NCBI GenBank assembly: GCA_041740355.1
Contig: JBGSMD010000063.1
Location: 1-64,000, forward strand
DNA from: Bdellovibrionota bacterium
Lineage (GTDB): Bacteria > Bdellovibrionota_C > UBA2361 > CALJRW01
Direction: 5' to 3'
Length of the DNA stretch: 64,000 nucleotides
Below, piece after piece: positions 35,409 through 48,177 of this stretch (within the stretch, counting starts at the first letter, position 1; each line of letters begins with the position of its first letter). The translations under genes and the position numbers were made by a program. The notes under the pieces are model-generated. The model was not told where the DNA came from. It was given only the letters and a program-made list of their open reading frames with translations, and ran no database searches.

Positions 35409-38348
35409 ATGACTGCAAATAAAAGTTTGGAAAAAATTCGAGAGATTCTTAATGCTCACCCCATCGATGATTATGTTCGTCCGGTGACAGTTAAACGTCT
35501 TAAACATCACGATTTTCAGAAACACCAAAATGAACGAATTAAAGCAGCTAAAACCTTAGCTGATAATATTTACAACCTTTCTAATCTTGAAAGGGTAATT
35601 GATCCTCAAGCCTATCAAAGCACTTTCAAAAGAAACCTTGCTGGCCGAACATCAGAAGACAATCAATTTATTCTTAAATATGCTCAAAAATATTTTAAAG
35701 AACACTTTGGTGAAGCCATTAAAAGAAATGGAGAAAGTCCGGAATTACTAGAACAGATCGTAAAAAGAACCGGTAAAGATAGTCGTACGAAATTTGAGGC
35801 CGCCATCTCTGGTTTTAATGCTCCATTCCTAGCACAAGCAATCTATAAAATAGATCTCTCCGAAGTAAAAGCATTGAGTTCGATTCTTAGTGAACTGGAA
35901 TCATTAGATTCAGAACATTTAAAAGAACTTCAAGTCGAGCTTAAATTGCTTCATTACCTAGAGCTTGCAGAATTATCAATGAAATTTCTAGATCCCAACA
36001 GACCAGATTTAAGATGTTTACAACTCCTGTTACAAAACAAATCGTTGGTAGAAATTGAAAAAATTATCAAGGTGATCGAAGATAATTACCTCCTGAAGGA
36101 AGGAGAAGATACTCCCGGTTTCAATATTTGGTTAGAAAAAAACTTTTCAGGATATGATCTTCAAGCAATCAAGCAAATCTTAAATGGATTAAACCTTAAT
36201 TTTATTGCAGAACAAATCAATTGGATTTTTAACAATAGTGAGAACCTTTGGGTTGACTTTGCCGGATTACAAACACAAAAGCTAGGTACATTAATATTAC
36301 ACGTTGAGCATAATCAAGGAGAAACTTCCCGACTAAACCGTGAAATTCGCCTGCGTCCCTTTATCCAATCAATTACATACTTCTTGAGTGCCCGCCAATT
36401 TAATAATTTAAATCAAATCCTAGAAAAGAACTATGGATTTCATTTAACTCTAGATTTCTACCTCCCAGCTGAGACAACTACACCACTAAGTAATTATCTC
36501 AAATTAGAAAAAGCACTAACTAGCATTGAATACAATGCCTCCATGAAGATGGAAGTTTGTTACTCTGATTATCGAAACTCCCTATACAACTTAACAAAGC
36601 AAGATAGCTCTTTTGATGTGCATCAACCTTTTAATTTGACATTAGCCAAATTGCTTTTTCTCTACATGCTACCGGCAGATCAGCTTTACTTACTAAAAAA
36701 TTCCTGTTTATCTAATTCGAAAAGTACCCTGATAGATCTTTTGCAGAAGCGTGTCTTACGTAAAACAAATAAATCCGACTATTCAAGCTTAATTGAATTA
36801 TTGAATTCAGGACTTGCCCAAAAATTGACTGAATTTGATATAGAGTTTCATTTTGATCAAATTTCCGAAAGTGATTTGCTCATTACAAAGTTAAAGTATT
36901 TAGCTGATGTAGAAAAAAAATTAATTGTTCTGATTGAAAATTTTGACATTAGCCCCGAAGAAAAAGCTGTTCTTTTAATAAATGAACTACAGAAGCTAAA
37001 TTACAAAGAATTAGTCGACATTGATCGTTTATTTCATTTTAAAAACGATTCCAGCTTACTTTTAAAGATTAAGCCTTTAATTTCTCCTGCTGCATTCTTA
37101 AAAATTCAAATTATCCTTTGTGGCTTTAACCCCAAAATCGAAGCCAAAAATCTTCTTGAAAATCACAATTGGCAGTCCTTATTACAAAGAACACCTTTAG
37201 AGATTGCCTTACTCGATGGAGAATTAAAAAAGACCCAGGGCACATCTTTATTGGAGTTGTTAGAAAAACAATCAATTGAAGGCGTTCCAAATGAAGTTCT
37301 ACTAGCTCCAGCCTTTTTTCCATTAGCCAGTCAATTCAAACAAAAAATCTTAGATACACAAGCCTGGAGTAACCTAGAAACAGACTATGTTTACAATAAT
37401 TTTAGAAAATCTCCGACAAGACTACAAGCTTTAGAAACTGCCTATAATTACTTATTTAGCAATCAAGAGGTATCCCAAGAATCAAGCTTTGGCTCTTGGA
37501 GAAACAGCTTTATTATCCAAGTACAACAAAAAAATATTAATAAAATAGAGTATACTACATTGCTCTCACTAGCCGAAGGTATTCCAATTACCTTAATACC
37601 AGATATTTTTAAAATTACAGCAAACAGTGAATTGGGAATCGAGGATCTTCATGAATTAAATTTAATCCTCCGAACTTATCGTCCAAACCTTAAGATCATT
37701 AAAATGCTTTATTTGATTTACGATGGACAATTAAGTTTACGAGAAAGAATTTACAAGTTTAAAGTCTTACCGAGAGATGAGAACCTTAGTCTTTTACTGC
37801 TTGATGGATATGATCCTGAAAAATTAGCCAGGGCATTTATTGAACAATTTAAGTCCGCTAATAAACTATCAATTGAATCTCTCTTCAATCAACTTAGTCC
37901 TAAACATTCTAGTCTGATTCCAGTTAAAGATAACTGGAAAGAAGAGATGTATCATCAACTTAGAATTCGCTACGAAATTTTTTCGGGAAGACGACTGATC
38001 ACTGACATTATGTCATTAATTAAAGATGACTCCGAATTAGAAACTGTCCGTAAAATTTGTGATTTTCTATATGGAGAAATGTCTACTAAGTGTTTTGCCT
38101 TACATCAGGCGATTCAATCAACAAATGCCGATCCTAAATTGATTGTAAAAAAACTACAAAATTTTAAACCATCACAAGTAGAACAGATGGATCACCTCTA
38201 TCTTAGTTATTATGGATTAAGTTTACTTGATGAGTTGGTTAAATTCTTTCCTGATGACGAAGATGATCGCTTTGCCGAAGATCTATTCGGGCGAAGTCAG
38301 GACTGGGAAAACCAAAAACTTAAACTTAAACTTGATTCTGAAAGTTAA
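35409..38348 (+). CDS. Large helical-repeat protein with divergent annexin-like repeats
   Basis: 979 aa. Recurring G[FY][ND]xxxxA starts and L..RS/T..[EQ]...I...Y...YG..L...[IL] segments. Confidence 0.65.
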   Translation: MTANKSLEKIREILNAHPIDDYVRPVTVKRLKHHDFQKHQNERIKAAKTLADNIYNLSNLERVIDPQAYQSTFKRNLAGRTSEDNQFILKYAQKYFKEHFGEAIKRNGESPELLEQIVKRTGKDSRTKFEAAISGFNAPFLAQAIYKIDLSEVKALSSILSELESLDSEHLKELQVELKLLHYLELAELSMKFLDPNRPDLRCLQLLLQNKSLVEIEKIIKVIEDNYLLKEGEDTPGFNIWLEKNFSGYDLQAIKQILNGLNLNFIAEQINWIFNNSENLWVDFAGLQTQKLGTLILHVEHNQGETSRLNREIRLRPFIQSITYFLSARQFNNLNQILEKNYGFHLTLDFYLPAETTTPLSNYLKLEKALTSIEYNASMKMEVCYSDYRNSLYNLTKQDSSFDVHQPFNLTLAKLLFLYMLPADQLYLLKNSCLSNSKSTLIDLLQKRVLRKTNKSDYSSLIELLNSGLAQKLTEFDIEFHFDQISESDLLITKLKYLADVEKKLIVLIENFDISPEEKAVLLINELQKLNYKELVDIDRLFHFKNDSSLLLKIKPLISPAAFLKIQIILCGFNPKIEAKNLLENHNWQSLLQRTPLEIALLDGELKKTQGTSLLELLEKQSIEGVPNEVLLAPAFFPLASQFKQKILDTQAWSNLETDYVYNNFRKSPTRLQALETAYNYLFSNQEVSQESSFGSWRNSFIIQVQQKNINKIEYTTLLSLAEGIPITLIPDIFKITANSELGIEDLHELNLILRTYRPNLKIIKMLYLIYDGQLSLRERIYKFKVLPRDENLSLLLLDGYDPEKLARAFIEQFKSANKLSIESLFNQLSPKHSSLIPVKDNWKEEMYHQLRIRYEIFSGRRLITDIMSLIKDDSELETVRKICDFLYGEMSTKCFALHQAIQSTNADPKLIVKKLQNFKPSQVEQMDHLYLSYYGLSLLDELVKFFPDDEDDRFAEDLFGRSQDWENQKLKLKLDSES

Positions 38349-38565: not shown

Positions 38566-38940
38566 TTGATGATCCATTATAAATACCACCAAAAAGCATT
38601 TTTTAGTCTTAGATTTTTTATCTATGTATTTTTTATTGGTTTTTTTGTGTACTGTGGTTTTTGGGTTGGTCGTTTCTATTATGACTACTACGCTATTCAT
38701 GATGCTGCAAGAAATATTTTTTTAGAAGCACATCGAAAGTCAGATGAGCAAATTCTTACTGCACTAAAAAAGACAATTAGTCTTCATGGTACGCCGATCT
38801 ATAATGAAGACATAAAAATAATTCGTAAGCCTGGCTTAATTAACTTGAAGATTGAGTATAGTGAATATCTCTTTATTGGCGAACTTCCCTTACATAAGTT
38901 TAATTTTTCAATTAATGAAACACGTCAGTTTAAAAAATGA
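38566..38940 (+). CDS. DUF4845-like / pilin-like single-TM protein
   Basis: N-terminal QKAFF plus a hydrophobic helix, YYDYY, and a small beta-rich C-terminus. Confidence 0.6.
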   Translation: MMIHYKYHQKAFFSLRFFIYVFFIGFFVYCGFWVGRFYYDYYAIHDAARNIFLEAHRKSDEQILTALKKTISLHGTPIYNEDIKIIRKPGLINLKIEYSEYLFIGELPLHKFNFSINETRQFKK

Positions 38941-40256
38941 TTTCTAATCATTTCTTGAAACTGATTGCCCCGATCTTCAAAATCTATAAATTGATCAAAG
39001 CTGGCAGCTCCTGGTGATAACAAGAACAATTGCTTTGTTGTAGATTTTAAGAGCCGAGCTTTCGTCCATGCTAGCTGAGTCGCCTCTATCAATTTCTCGG
39101 TGTAGAATTTGTTATTAACCGTTAACTCAGTAAAAACGGTTTTCCCAGTTATTGAATAACAAAAAACACTAATTTCAGGATGATTGTTTAGGTACTCAAT
39201 GATTAATTTCTGCGAAGTCCCTTTAGAATATCCCCCTACGAATAAACTGATTTGATAATTGGAATAGGCTTGTAAGGCAGCGATTACAGCTTCGGGTGCC
39301 GTGGAGATACTATCATCAACCGCTAGTAAGTTGTCTTGATCATAAAAAACTTCTAAACGATGAGGCAATCCTTGAAATGAATCAATAACGGATTGAATGG
39401 CAACTATTTGGTTTTTCCAGTTCAATCCAAATGAACTAGCTATATGTTCTAGAATTCCAACTGCTCCTTGCAAGGTTGCCTGCAAATGATCTGGGTAAAA
39501 ATAAGGATTATTAATTTTCAATTCACAGTTCTCTTCAAGTTTGATTATGTGATCCTTAATTAAATAATTAATTTGCTGATATTCCAAATCTGGACGTTCT
39601 TGATTTAAGAAGTTCGCCGTCTTTTGATTGAAGATAATAAACTGTTTGGCACCTTGGCTAATTCTTAATTTATCTTGATAATATTGAGATAAGGTCAAAT
39701 GCCAACTCAAATGTTCTGGGAAGATCGAAGTCAGTACGGCAACATTTGGTTCAATCTGTAAACTTGCCAGTTGGTAGCTAGATAATTCAATTACTGCTAC
39801 TTGGGCAACTTGATCAATTTGATCCATTAACGGTCGGCCAATGTTTCCAGCTAGTAAGACTTTAATTCCAATAGTCTCTAATAACTCTGCGAGTAATTTA
39901 CAAAAAGTACTTTTCCCTTTACTTCCTGTTACACAAATCTTAAATGACTGATGCTGGTCGAAGAATATTTGATTCGGAGAGAGAACCTTTGCTCCTTTAG
40001 CAAGAGCTTGCTGAATTTGCTCTTGGTAGAGGCTAACTCCGGGAGCCTTAAAAACAATATTATAAGCACTAATCGCACTAGATTCAATAAACCTACTAGG
40101 GAGGGGTAAGGGATCTTGAAACATCTTTTGATCACAATAAACGATCTCCGAAATTAACTTTTTATCAGCAAGATAATGAATCAAGGAAAGGTTTTCACGG
40201 CCTAGTCCATAGAAGCAAATTGAATGCTTATTTTTTATTAGTTCTAAGGTATTCAT
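38925..40256 (-). CDS. murD: UDP-MurNAc-L-Ala--glutamate ligase, MurD2 type
   Basis: GLGREN, APGVS, TGSKGKST (K where canonical MurD has N), GNIG, ELSSYQL, LPHRLE, DDSIST, LSPGAASFDQF; adjacent to murL. Confidence 0.9.
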   Translation of the reverse strand: MNTLELIKNKHSICFYGLGRENLSLIHYLADKKLISEIVYCDQKMFQDPLPLPSRFIESSAISAYNIVFKAPGVSLYQEQIQQALAKGAKVLSPNQIFFDQHQSFKICVTGSKGKSTFCKLLAELLETIGIKVLLAGNIGRPLMDQIDQVAQVAVIELSSYQLASLQIEPNVAVLTSIFPEHLSWHLTLSQYYQDKLRISQGAKQFIIFNQKTANFLNQERPDLEYQQINYLIKDHIIKLEENCELKINNPYFYPDHLQATLQGAVGILEHIASSFGLNWKNQIVAIQSVIDSFQGLPHRLEVFYDQDNLLAVDDSISTAPEAVIAALQAYSNYQISLFVGGYSKGTSQKLIIEYLNNHPEISVFCYSITGKTVFTELTVNNKFYTEKLIEATQLAWTKARLLKSTTKQLFLLSPGAASFDQFIDFEDRGNQFQEMIRNHFLN

Positions 40257-41544
40257 CTATGATAATTTTAAACTTTGCCGGAATTAAATGCTCCCCTTCA
40301 AAATTAAATAAATCTAATTCTGAAGCAGGTAAGATCTGTTCTGTAATTGCTTGAACAACAAATAAACTTAAAAACTTTTGCTTTGCTACTAAAATTCGAA
40401 ATAACTCGCGACACTCGGCATACTCCCCAACACACTCCCAGGGTTTATTCTCTAACAATCCAGTTAAACGTTGAAATTCAACTAAGAGTTGTTCTTCGTC
40501 AAGTAAATTTCTCCCAAATATTTGTAGTAATTTTCGCTCCTCTAAAAAAGGTGCCAAACAAAGAAATACAAAACAACACTTGGGACACTTACCACACCAC
40601 TTTCCTGCTTGGTCACTCGTTATTTTCTTGGACTGATTACAGCTCACAAAAACGTCTAGGTATTCCTGATGCCTAGCCAATTGTTTAGCAATAGCTGCTT
40701 CAGAAAACTGACGTAATAGTGAAAAATATTCTAAATCGGAACAAATCTGCGTTTTAATAAATTTATTAAACTGCTCTTCAAAGTGAAACGACTTGCTGTA
40801 TTGATGATTTACTGCAGTTCCTAAATATTCCAAATTTGCCTCATTAGCAGATCGCTCATTTCCTAAGACAAGGTACTTCTTCTTGTAAATCAAAGCTGCA
40901 ACTACACATACCGCACCTAAAATTGCAGAGAATGGCACATGACCATTTAATGCACCTTGCTGATTAAGTATTAATAATTGCGGATCAATCTTTCTATGAA
41001 TCTCAACTAAGGATAAATTCTTTAACTTAGCAATCTCTTGAACTTGCGGATTCACACCAAGCGTTAATAAGAGTGGAGTTTCCTCCTTGATGATTTCCAG
41101 ACATAACATGGAATCTTTTCCACCACCCATCGGCAGAATTATTCCAGAGGAAGAACAATTTTCATAAGCAGTTAAACTTGAGAAAGAAGACACTGGAAAA
41201 TTAATTTTACTTCGAAGGTCGAGTTGATTGCGATAAGCAAACTCTTGTAATCCTAAGAAAAAGGTTTGATTAAAAAACTCTGCTTGCGTAGAATTTAAAT
41301 GAAAATTCTGATATTTAATAATTTCCGGTATTCCAACTTTGTAATAACTAATACCAAGAATTATATGCAGATAAGTTAAGCTAGTGACTAGTGTCGAAAG
41401 ATCAAGTTCACTTGTTGAAATTTTTGGAAAACATATTTCCTCTTGAAACAAATATTTGTCTAAAGAAAAATTAAATTTCACCCTGAGCGAATCAGAGCTA
41501 ATCTCAGTTTGATAATCAAGATATGAAAAGGTTTTAAACTGCAA
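40228..41544 (-). CDS. murL: UDP-MurNAc-L-Ala-L-Glu epimerase
   Basis: GISYYK, GLQEFAYRN, GGGKDS PP-loop, NGHVPFS, NERSA, NHQYSKS, SCN, WCGKCPKC, KPWECVG. Confidence 0.9.
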   Translation of the reverse strand: MQFKTFSYLDYQTEISSDSLRVKFNFSLDKYLFQEEICFPKISTSELDLSTLVTSLTYLHIILGISYYKVGIPEIIKYQNFHLNSTQAEFFNQTFFLGLQEFAYRNQLDLRSKINFPVSSFSSLTAYENCSSSGIILPMGGGKDSMLCLEIIKEETPLLLTLGVNPQVQEIAKLKNLSLVEIHRKIDPQLLILNQQGALNGHVPFSAILGAVCVVAALIYKKKYLVLGNERSANEANLEYLGTAVNHQYSKSFHFEEQFNKFIKTQICSDLEYFSLLRQFSEAAIAKQLARHQEYLDVFVSCNQSKKITSDQAGKWCGKCPKCCFVFLCLAPFLEERKLLQIFGRNLLDEEQLLVEFQRLTGLLENKPWECVGEYAECRELFRILVAKQKFLSLFVVQAITEQILPASELDLFNFEGEHLIPAKFKIIIDEYLRTNKK

Positions 41545-47502: not shown

Positions 47503-47592
47503 TGGAGGAGAGTGAGGGATTCGAACCCTCGGTACAGTTTCCCGTACACTCGCTTAGCAGGCGAGTGCCTTCAGCCACTCGGCCAACTCTCC
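47503..47592 (-). tRNA. tRNA-Ser(GCT)
   Basis: Cloverleaf GGAGAGT/ACTCTCC, anticodon arm CTCGC-CTGCTAA-GCGAG, long variable arm, CCA encoded. Confidence 0.97.
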
Positions 47593-47646
47593 ATAGTTAT
47601 TATAGATTTTTAGTACTAAAAATCAGAAATTGTATTCCACAAAAAC

Positions 47647-47734
47647 TGGAGGAGAGGGACGGATTCGAACCCCCGAAGCCTTGCGACTTGCCGGTTTTCA
47701 AGACCGGTGCCTTCAACCACTCGGCCACCTCTCC
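47647..47734 (-). tRNA. tRNA-Ser(TGA), copy 1
   Basis: Anticodon arm CCGGT-CTTGAAA-ACCGG, long variable arm, CCA encoded. Confidence 0.95.
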
Positions 47735-47865
47735 TTATAATTAATTGTAGATTTTTTTGACTGATTAATCAGAAATTCTTATCTATGCCAATCTGCCCTG
47801 AATAATCTTTGTAAAATTATTCAGGAGTACCCACCTTTGTTTTTTACGTAAGCAAAAACCAAAAA

Positions 47866-47953
47866 TGGAGGAGAGGGACGGATTCGAACCCCCGAAGCCT
47901 TGCGACTTGCCGGTTTTCAAGACCGGTGCCTTCAACCACTCGGCCACCTCTCC
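47866..47953 (-). tRNA. tRNA-Ser(TGA), copy 2
   Basis: Identical 88-nt sequence to 47647-47734. Confidence 0.95.
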
Positions 47954-48080
47954 TCAGTTTGGTGAGTTGAAATTATAAAATAATCACTTTAAATGCAAGT
48001 ATTTCAGAAATTTAGCAGTAAAAAAGATCCGTTTTTTGCATTTATCCCTAAATTCTGTTAGAAATGCCAACCTGAATTGT

Positions 48081-48154
48081 GCGCTTTTAGCTCAGCTGGA
48101 TAGAGCGTCTGACTACGAATCAGAAGGTCGGTGGTTCGAATCCTCCAAGGCGCA
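48081..48154 (+). tRNA. tRNA-Arg(ACG)
   Basis: GCGCTTT/AAGGCGC acceptor stem, anticodon arm TCTGA-CTACGAA-TCAGA; CCA not encoded. Confidence 0.95.
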
Positions 48155-48177
48155 TTTTTTTATCTTCAATCTATCTA

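Follow-up and report, generated by a model that had tools for sequence, protein, structure and literature searches.

The locus examined here raises the question of whether a bacterium can make a long protein of annexin repeats and, if so, what such a protein might do. An open reading frame (ORF) at positions 35409-38348 of contig JBGSMD010000063.1 (GenBank assembly GCA_041740355.1, Bdellovibrionota bacterium; positions 1 to 64,000 were analysed, and this whole stretch of 64,000 nucleotides is called the window) encodes a 979-residue protein, here named P0001. A preliminary description, made by eye from the letters and their translation, had proposed that it consists of about 10 divergent annexin-like repeats and lacks a visible GxGT calcium loop. 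Annexins are treated as a hallmark of eukaryotes. The analysis reported below makes it very probable that P0001 is a soluble, cytoplasmic, all-helical protein of eleven tandem, mutually homologous and very divergent annexin repeats, five of which form an N-terminal half and six a C-terminal half, joined by a 25-residue linker helix. The core of the proposal, that divergent annexin-type repeats are strung together in a long row and lack the canonical calcium loop, is upheld by sequence profiles and by the predicted structure.

According to the available text of a 2014 survey (Kodavali et al., PMC3894181), the only one found, 34 bacterial annexin proteins from 17 species carry one to five repeats; GxGTD is retained in most of them, many have toxin, protease, lipase or transmembrane parts fused to the repeats, and more diverged annexin motifs could exist, as its authors warn. 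The maximum of five repeats per protein in that text agrees with the statement of the preliminary description that reported bacterial annexins have few repeats. A 2024 review, in the portion available, describes prokaryotic annexins as a class "in abeyance" (PMC10882027). Among the papers listed in literature searches on bacterial or prokaryotic annexins, and on annexin together with Bdellovibrio, none describes a long array that lacks calcium sites.

Sequence profiles

Profiles were made from two separate alignments, one of 31 full-length family members (alignment A2, giving the full-length profile) and one of the N-terminal half only, with 15 sequences cut from genome loci (alignment A4, giving the N-half profile). 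The full-length profile was searched against the sequences of the PDB and gave 75 matches at an expectation value (E) of at most 10, with 71 at E<=0.001; the best 60 of the 75 were all annexins or annexin-A2 fusion constructs, and annexin VI stood at the top (E 2.7e-17, then 6.2e-15). These matches lay in three separate regions, corresponding to units U2-U3, U6-U7 and U10-U11 (numbered from the N-terminus, Table 1): the profile region of U2-U3 matched annexin A2 (E ~3e-5), the stretch 540-652, which covers U7, matched annexin V, and the best single stretch (i-Evalue 2.6e-6) included U10 from helix C onward, paired with annexin VI. The alignments followed the annexin order of elements in register, from helix A through the A-B loop and helix B to helix C with its Tyr, then "G..L" and helix D. 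With the N-half profile, 78 PDB matches were obtained at E<=1, the best (E 6.1e-10) in U5, where the family consensus retains the "FDP..A..L" start; among the best 60 of these 78, 59 were annexin-type and one was a G-protein beta subunit.

When family members were scanned singly, the Pfam Annexin family (PF00191, curated cut-off 25 bits) was the sole recurrent Pfam family, matched at E<=0.01 in 7 of 31 members and at E<=0.05 in 11 of 28, and its matches in different members landed on different units. Three of the 28 homologues passed the cut-off (P0004 with 27.9, P0009 with 27.0 and P0008 with 26.3 bits), of which P0004 shares 34% identity with P0001 along the full length. Further large proteins from the same order contain genuine PF00191-positive repeats, and the family profile matched these as well (E 2.5e-8 to 3.6e-6). 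Pfam probably misses most members of the family, and bacterial annexin-like proteins are probably under-counted.

Repeat architecture

Units were parsed from the helix map of the structural model together with the alignments, the family alignment was sliced into these units, and all slices were compared against each other with hhalign. With earlier boundaries for U4 and U5 (261-372 and 373-470), 28 of 55 unit pairs reached P<1e-3 and 16 of 55 reached P<1e-4, each unit having a partner at P<=7.8e-5, while a control with reversed targets gave 0 of 110 comparisons at P<1e-3 (best 0.0046). Unit-unit alignments were in register. The repeat array of the preliminary description is therefore retained (28 of 55 pairs at P<1e-3), and its count of about 10 is replaced by the eleven units parsed. 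All segments that had been quoted are found in the translation, with the junctions GFNAPFLA, GFNPKIEA and GYDPEKLA at residues 135, 572 and 800. A pattern of block duplication was sought among the units; U2, U7 and U10 were alike, as were U3, U6 and U11, in an inconsistent order that yields no simple pattern.

Predicted structure

The AlphaFold2 model computed with alignment A2 is all-helical with 58 helices (predicted local distance difference test, pLDDT, 87.6; predicted template modelling score, pTM, 0.79). Foldseek placed annexin VI first when this model was compared with the PDB (E 2.4e-5 and 1.3e-4), and 39 of 45 listed rows were annexin-type. Because that list depends on Foldseek, a second search was run in which the model was aligned to 48,161 representative chains with no Foldseek prefilter; annexin-type chains held ranks 1 to 8 with the full model and ranks 1 to 7 with the N-terminal half. 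The latter had been folded alone from the shallower alignment A4 (pLDDT 72.3, pTM 0.66); residues 281-304, in U4, had low pLDDT in this model. In the predicted models, single units superposed on whole annexin repeats at 2.0-2.9 Å over 71-82 residues: U6 on annexin I domain 1 (72 of 73 residues, 2.4 Å) and on annexin V repeat 2 (72 residues, 2.0 Å), and U5 on an annexin repeat (71 of 73 residues, 2.4 Å). The model thus has repeats of about 70 residues with five helices (A-E), the exceptions being U2 with three helices and the irregular U4. Sequence identity to eukaryotic annexins in structural alignments of the full-length model was 10-18%.

Several results weigh against annexin homology. Searched alone, P0001 gave only sub-threshold noise with Pfam and nothing with NCBIfam or the PDB sequences, and PF00191 was unmatched in P0001 even at E<=10 and in the whole genome at E<=1, so that the Pfam scan proposed in the preliminary description fails for the protein itself and succeeds through the three homologues above 25 bits. 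With the N-half model, Foldseek ranked annexins at the top, yet nothing reached E<=1e-3. Superpositions over two or more repeats had root mean square deviations (rmsd) of 6.8-35 Å, and template modelling scores normalised to the annexin chain were 0.13-0.29, about the level that one matching repeat out of four gives. Since the multi-repeat superpositions fail, a four-repeat (tetrad) disc is not predicted, and in the model the repeats of P0001 would not be packed as in that disc.

Instead of an annexin homologue, P0001 could be an alpha-helical solenoid of a generic kind (HEAT, ARM or TPR-like), resembling annexins through convergence or helical composition. This alternative would have to account for profile matches that are almost exclusively to annexins, come from two different alignments and fall in three separate regions, for the three homologues above the Pfam Annexin threshold, for alignments in register with the A-loop-B-C-D-E pattern, for reversed controls that give nothing, and for the lack of matches to the HEAT, ARM and TPR families of Pfam. 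The profile matches, almost all to annexins, and the homologues that pass Pfam count heavily against it, and it is considered extremely improbable. The check by AlphaFold and Foldseek that had been proposed found annexin similarity, and not the generic solenoid without such similarity that the preliminary description had named as grounds for rejection.

Calcium motif, conservation and charge

P0001 contains 0 GxG[TS] motifs, as the preliminary description had noted for the GxGT loop, and hence no type II calcium site, defined as GxGT in the A-B loop followed, at a distance of about 38 positions, by an acidic residue. Among the 31 family members, GxG[TS] occurs once each in 8, at scattered places and in 0 cases in an A-B loop. 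The A-B loops of P0001 read SNLERVID, KIDLSE, LDPNRPD, NFDIS, HN, DTQAWS, NSELG, SANKLS and STNAD; LDPNRPD, the counterpart of annexin GxGTDE, belongs to U3, a unit that the profile search paired with an annexin VI repeat. As read from the sequence, GxGT-type calcium sites are lost or were never present in P0001, and we infer that the protein is calcium-independent. The strongest conservation lies outside the calcium-type loops, in "GESPE..QIVKRTG" of U1 and in "LLLLDGYDP" and "NW..EMYHQ" of U9-U10, and the invariant columns of the full-length alignment are F96, G108 and R120 in U1, L796 in U9, and P838, N842 and W843 in U10.

These data bear on the possibility that P0001 is a stand-alone peripheral membrane protein whose array would lie on the inner leaflet and organise, sense or repair the membrane, with contacts made without canonical calcium sites, through direct loop contacts or other cation sites. 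Annexin ancestry speaks for such a role, as do membrane binding by annexin repeats in all studied cases (according to the available parts of PMC10882027 and PMC12249911), the high avidity expected of a long array, and the invariant Trp with its neighbours in the U10 loop. The missing GxGT loops speak against it, together with the acidic isoelectric point (pI; 5.94 for P0001, below 6.2 in 28 of 31 members), net charges of -5 to +4 by unit that leave no basic patch per unit, the absence of an amphipathic or hydrophobic anchor, and the lack of conserved membrane-related genes nearby. By analogy with known annexins this role may be entertained, and it is regarded as rather unlikely.

Gene and gene product

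The ORF has an ATG start and faces many stops on the opposite strand, and its extent is exactly that given in the preliminary description. The gene is present in a single copy in the genome (3.27 Mb, 74 contigs, 97% complete), and its GC content is about 33%, compared with 34-39% over most of the window. P0001 is an all-helical protein of 114 kDa. Its hydropathy maxima are 0.28 for 10 residues at the N-terminus and 1.43 for 19 residues anywhere; these values indicate a soluble protein without a transmembrane segment, probably cytoplasmic. That a signal peptide is absent, as had been stated earlier, holds on hydropathy only, a dedicated signal-peptide predictor not having been used. A promoter scan around the gene found fewer promoter-like sites than in shuffled sequences and none in the upstream gap, and a terminator scan found no terminator-like site after the stop codon. 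The source DNA is present in sequencing runs of hot-spring and biofilm metagenomes of one study; no RNA sequencing run was listed as containing the source sequence.

Nine of the 15 homologues read from genome loci (L009, L010, L011, L013, L014, L015, L017, L019 and L020) open with a conserved basic motif (type KKIV[FIL]KK), after which comes a low-complexity stretch that varies. The N-terminus of P0001 is shorter than in those homologues and lacks the motif. In the homologues this start could be a docking or sorting peptide.

Family and distribution

Two close relatives, 74% and 63% identical, emerged from a word-indexed search of 5.8 billion proteins. When 1.84 billion cluster representatives were scanned exhaustively with HMMER, 41 proteins had E<=1e-3, the majority of them colinear, 930-1100 residues long and 24-34% identical. 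Source names exist for 3 of 10 members looked up; in each case the name is "hypothetical protein", and one of these entries comes from a metagenome-assembled genome labelled "Deltaproteobacteria bacterium". A search of public genome contigs with a 7-sequence alignment as query retrieved the same-genus relative only. The nearest cluster in a protein atlas (score 0.83, to be taken as a lead only) is represented by a 1061-residue hypothetical protein, has Pfam Annexin in 19% of its members and carries one phylum label, Bdellovibrionota. The family to which P0001 belongs had no name before; its members, mostly encoded in single copy, are about 930-1100 residues long.

The taxonomic survey of homologues proposed in the preliminary description was made in a phylum sample of 124 genomes, 91 of the same order and 33 of other orders, with the family profile at E<=1e-5. 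Matches were found in 48 of the 124 genomes, all within the same order and 0 of 33 in other orders; 2 of the 48 are partial matches to other proteins, so that 46-48 of the 91 are positive. By taxonomic family (f), the window's own genome excluded, positives numbered 35 of 36 in f9, 2 of 2 in f1, 3 of 4 in f8, 2 of 2 in f15 and 3 of 7 in f11. The protein family is restricted to a few families within a single order of uncultured bacteria, which are probably Bdellovibrionota-like, as the Deltaproteobacteria label of one homologue and the phylum label of the atlas cluster indicate.

Canonical annexin repeats were also seen in other proteins of this order. PF00191 exceeded its cut-off in 19 of the 91 genomes, which represent 14 of 39 genera, and in 0 of 14 control genomes; the open frames concerned are 245-4210 residues long. 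Two such giant proteins are entered in Table 1; among these giants, one has 5 stretches with 197 bits and another has 4 stretches with 123 bits, fused to FHA domains. The order looks unusually rich in annexin repeats.

The host-interaction option of the preliminary description would make P0001 an exported effector that mimics annexins of a host or prey and acts on a foreign membrane. A eukaryote-like fold and the lack of a signal peptide, as in many specialised-secretion effectors, are compatible with this, as are the VirB4-like and coupling-protein genes carried by the genome, a type IV coupling-protein-like gene (about 790-800 residues) that lies downstream of the repeat-protein gene, at a distance of two to four genes, in 4 of 10 distant loci, all f9, and the giant annexin-repeat proteins of the order just described. 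The gene behaves otherwise: it is single-copy, colinear and vertically distributed, it occurs in almost every genome of f9, and it sits between rnc/der and murD/murL. In its own genome the coupling-protein-like gene is solitary among glycosyltransferase genes, outside any secretion cluster; identity to eukaryotic annexins is low, and PADLOC matched neither P0001 nor its f9 homologue. Because of the vertical, single-copy distribution and the housekeeping surroundings, the evidence points to a cellular rather than a host-directed role, and export as an effector is judged very unlikely.

Genomic neighbourhood and tandem ATPase

In the window the gene order is rnc, der, the P0001 gene, a 124-residue ORF and a convergent murD/murL pair, and this synteny (rnc/der/124-residue ORF/murD/murL) is kept in the same genus only. 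At ten more distant loci the sole recurrent neighbour was a tandem AAA+ ATPase of about 750 residues, found in 7 of 10. In counts that come from related genomes and are not independent samples, the tandem AAA+ gene adjoins the repeat-protein gene on the same strand in 7 of 7 sampled genomes of f9 (with a gap of 27 bases in L026, the one locus measured) and in divergent orientation in 3 of 3 positive genomes of f8; in one genome of f11 it lies 7.8 kb away. In a 61-genome sample, the tandem form of the ATPase is present in every one of the 17 genomes that are positive for the repeat protein; the majority of the order's other genomes possess the single-module form alone, about 360-470 residues long. 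The tandem ATPase (about 750-780 residues, 55-67% identical across the order) has two near-identical modules of about 320 residues, an internal duplication, after a low-complexity N-terminus. Its nearest NCBIfam model, 'MadB family AAA-type ATPase', scored far below its cut-off, PADLOC gave generic AAA matches only, and a literature search on the 'MadB' name found nothing relevant.

As a whole, the explanation of P0001 as an annexin-repeat protein that is cytoplasmic and serves as a calcium-independent scaffold with the ATPase is the best one and is considered reasonably probable. Its mechanistic step is more tentative, a possibility that falls short of being probable: P0001 would be an elongated, calcium-independent scaffold within the cell that acts together with the tandem AAA+ ATPase, a conserved protein for which it would serve as a platform, an adaptor or a client. 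This step is favoured because the protein is probably cytoplasmic, has no canonical calcium bridge and is acidic, and because the tandem AAA+ gene is its sole conserved genomic association. Both a partnership with the ATPase and any membrane role are what we infer from such features.

Other observations on the ATPase count against the scaffold, besides the relatedness of the genomes in which adjacency was counted. The ATPase gene is unlinked in f1 and f15 (in f15, 124 kb apart or on separate contigs), and in the source genome the repeat gene lies on contig 63 and the ATPase orthologue (58% identity) on contig 39, unlinked, as in the family of that genome. At least 7 sampled genomes have the tandem ATPase with no P0001 relative found, and a search of five of them with the family profile gave no match. 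Finally, the N-terminus of the ATPase offers no folded domain in which an adaptor site might be suspected.

A further and unlikely extension would be that the eleven-repeat array, lacking both calcium sites and the annexin disc, is a vertically inherited cell component paired with the tandem AAA+ ATPase as a membrane- or assembly-remodelling module, and that the order, probably a predatory lineage and one that holds canonical annexin repeats as well (19 of 91 genomes), is a reservoir in which the fold diversified. If so, the remodelling pair would echo eukaryotic annexins and AAA+-driven repair machinery, and the reservoir would bear on whether annexins arose in bacteria. A real link to the ATPase would also give a testable entry to the role of annexin repeats in a cell without eukaryotic membranes.

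Comparison with known annexins

Eukaryotic annexins (annexin A6, PDB 1m9i and 1avc; A1, A2, A4 and A5) are the best profile and fold matches of P0001 and share with it tandem five-helix repeats of about 70 residues, the pattern of helix A, loop, helix B and helix C with a conserved Tyr, the '..Y...yG..L' motif, and the state of a soluble protein without a signal peptide. They have four or eight repeats, whereas P0001 has eleven; they have GxGT-(38)-D/E calcium sites, of which P0001 has none; and their repeats form one or two four-repeat discs, an arrangement not predicted by the model of P0001. P0001 differs further in its truncated U2, in the insertions of U4 and U5 and in its bacterial host.

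With the bacterial annexins covered in the accessible part of PMC3894181, which come from a patchy set of mostly aquatic bacteria including former Deltaproteobacteria, the P0001 family shares a remote but significant annexin-repeat similarity; it differs from them in having 11 repeats, no calcium motif and no other domain, and the 17 species as given there include no Bdellovibrio-like organism. For the alpha-giardins of Giardia (PDB 2ii2, 3chj and 4evh) the matched chains have about 300 residues, and superposition beyond one repeat is poor (rmsd 16-27 Å with the full-length model, 6.8-12 Å with the N-half model). The annexin-like domain of astrotactin-2 (PDB 5j67) is a single, calcium-binding unit in a vertebrate membrane protein, according to the available text of PMC4892435, in contrast to the eleven units without calcium motif of P0001.

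The array is the longest of annexin type seen so far in bacteria. The family also adds a version without calcium sites and with a different predicted packing, and f9 is a lineage in which an annexin-type protein is a near-universal single-copy gene and not a sporadic acquisition.

Features of the locus

Table 1. Units of P0001, the tandem ATPase and other features. Positions refer to the window unless a locus (L) is named; P values are from hhalign.
Feature	Position	Strand	Remarks
Whole gene (P0001)	35409..38348	+	979 aa + stop codon; ORF list and translation
N-terminal segment, aa 1-39	35409..35525	+	one short helix, then unstructured stretch (model)
U1, aa 40-134	35526..35810	+	most conserved stretch of family (NGESPE..QIVKRTG); U1-U3 P 1.8e-6
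U2, aa 135-184	35811..35960	+	short, helices A-B-C only; opens at GFNAPFLA; U2-U10 P 7.2e-7, U2-U7 P 2.3e-5
U3, aa 185-260	35961..36188	+	complete five-helix unit; U3-U11 P 1.1e-6, U3-U6 P 2.4e-6
U4, aa 261-353	36189..36467	+	most degenerate; extra helices after helix A; U4-U5 P 7.8e-5, register over helices B-C-D
U5, aa 354-468	36468..36812	+	lineage-specific insertion ~aa 373-405
Linker helix, aa 469-493	36813..36887	+	non-repeat; P>0.06 against all units
U6, aa 494-572	36888..37124	+	closest of the units to a canonical annexin repeat
U7, aa 573-639	37125..37325	+	opens at GFNPKIEA; two-residue A-B loop; U5-U7 P 2.2e-6, U7-U10 P 2.1e-5
U8, aa 640-726	37326..37586	+	U8-U9 P 6.6e-7 over 69 columns
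U9, aa 727-800	37587..37808	+	ends in conserved LLLLDG; L796 invariant; U8-U9 P 6.6e-7, U9-U11 P 2e-4
U10, aa 801-889	37809..38075	+	opens at GYDPEKLA; conserved B-C loop IP..DNW..EMYHQ; U2-U10 P 7.2e-7, U10-U11 P 1.3e-5
U11, aa 890-962	38076..38294	+	
C-terminal tail, aa 963-979 + stop	38295..38348	+	end of long helix aa 950-978 (model)
Tandem AAA+ ATPase	L026:3437-5734	+	own-genome orthologue L040:13998-16334 (-), G000 contig 39
Coupling-protein-like gene, own genome	L039:10701-13073		contig 39
Coupling-protein-like gene, L026	L026:10870-13272		
Giant annexin-repeat protein	L041:3063-7313		1416 aa; canonical Pfam Annexin repeats
Giant annexin-repeat protein	L042:65-4228		1387 aa; canonical Pfam Annexin repeats
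124-aa ORF	38566-38940	+	directly downstream of P0001; 68% identity in same-genus genome; Pfam, NCBIfam and PADLOC unmatched
murD-type ligase gene and MurL-like gene	38925-41544	-	overlapping; MurL E 7e-111, below model cut-off
ORF, 272 aa	41688-42506		Pfam and NCBIfam unmatched
ORF, 242 aa	42579-43307		Pfam and NCBIfam unmatched
ORF, 532 aa	45540-47138		Pfam unmatched
Four tRNA genes	47503-48155		Ser(gct), two Ser(tga) ~130 bases apart, divergent Arg(acg)

MurL is the UDP-MurNAc-L-Ala-L-Glu epimerase of Xanthomonadales, and the pair of a murD-type and a MurL-like gene downstream of P0001 suggests, from the sequence, an alternative L-Glu route of peptidoglycan synthesis.

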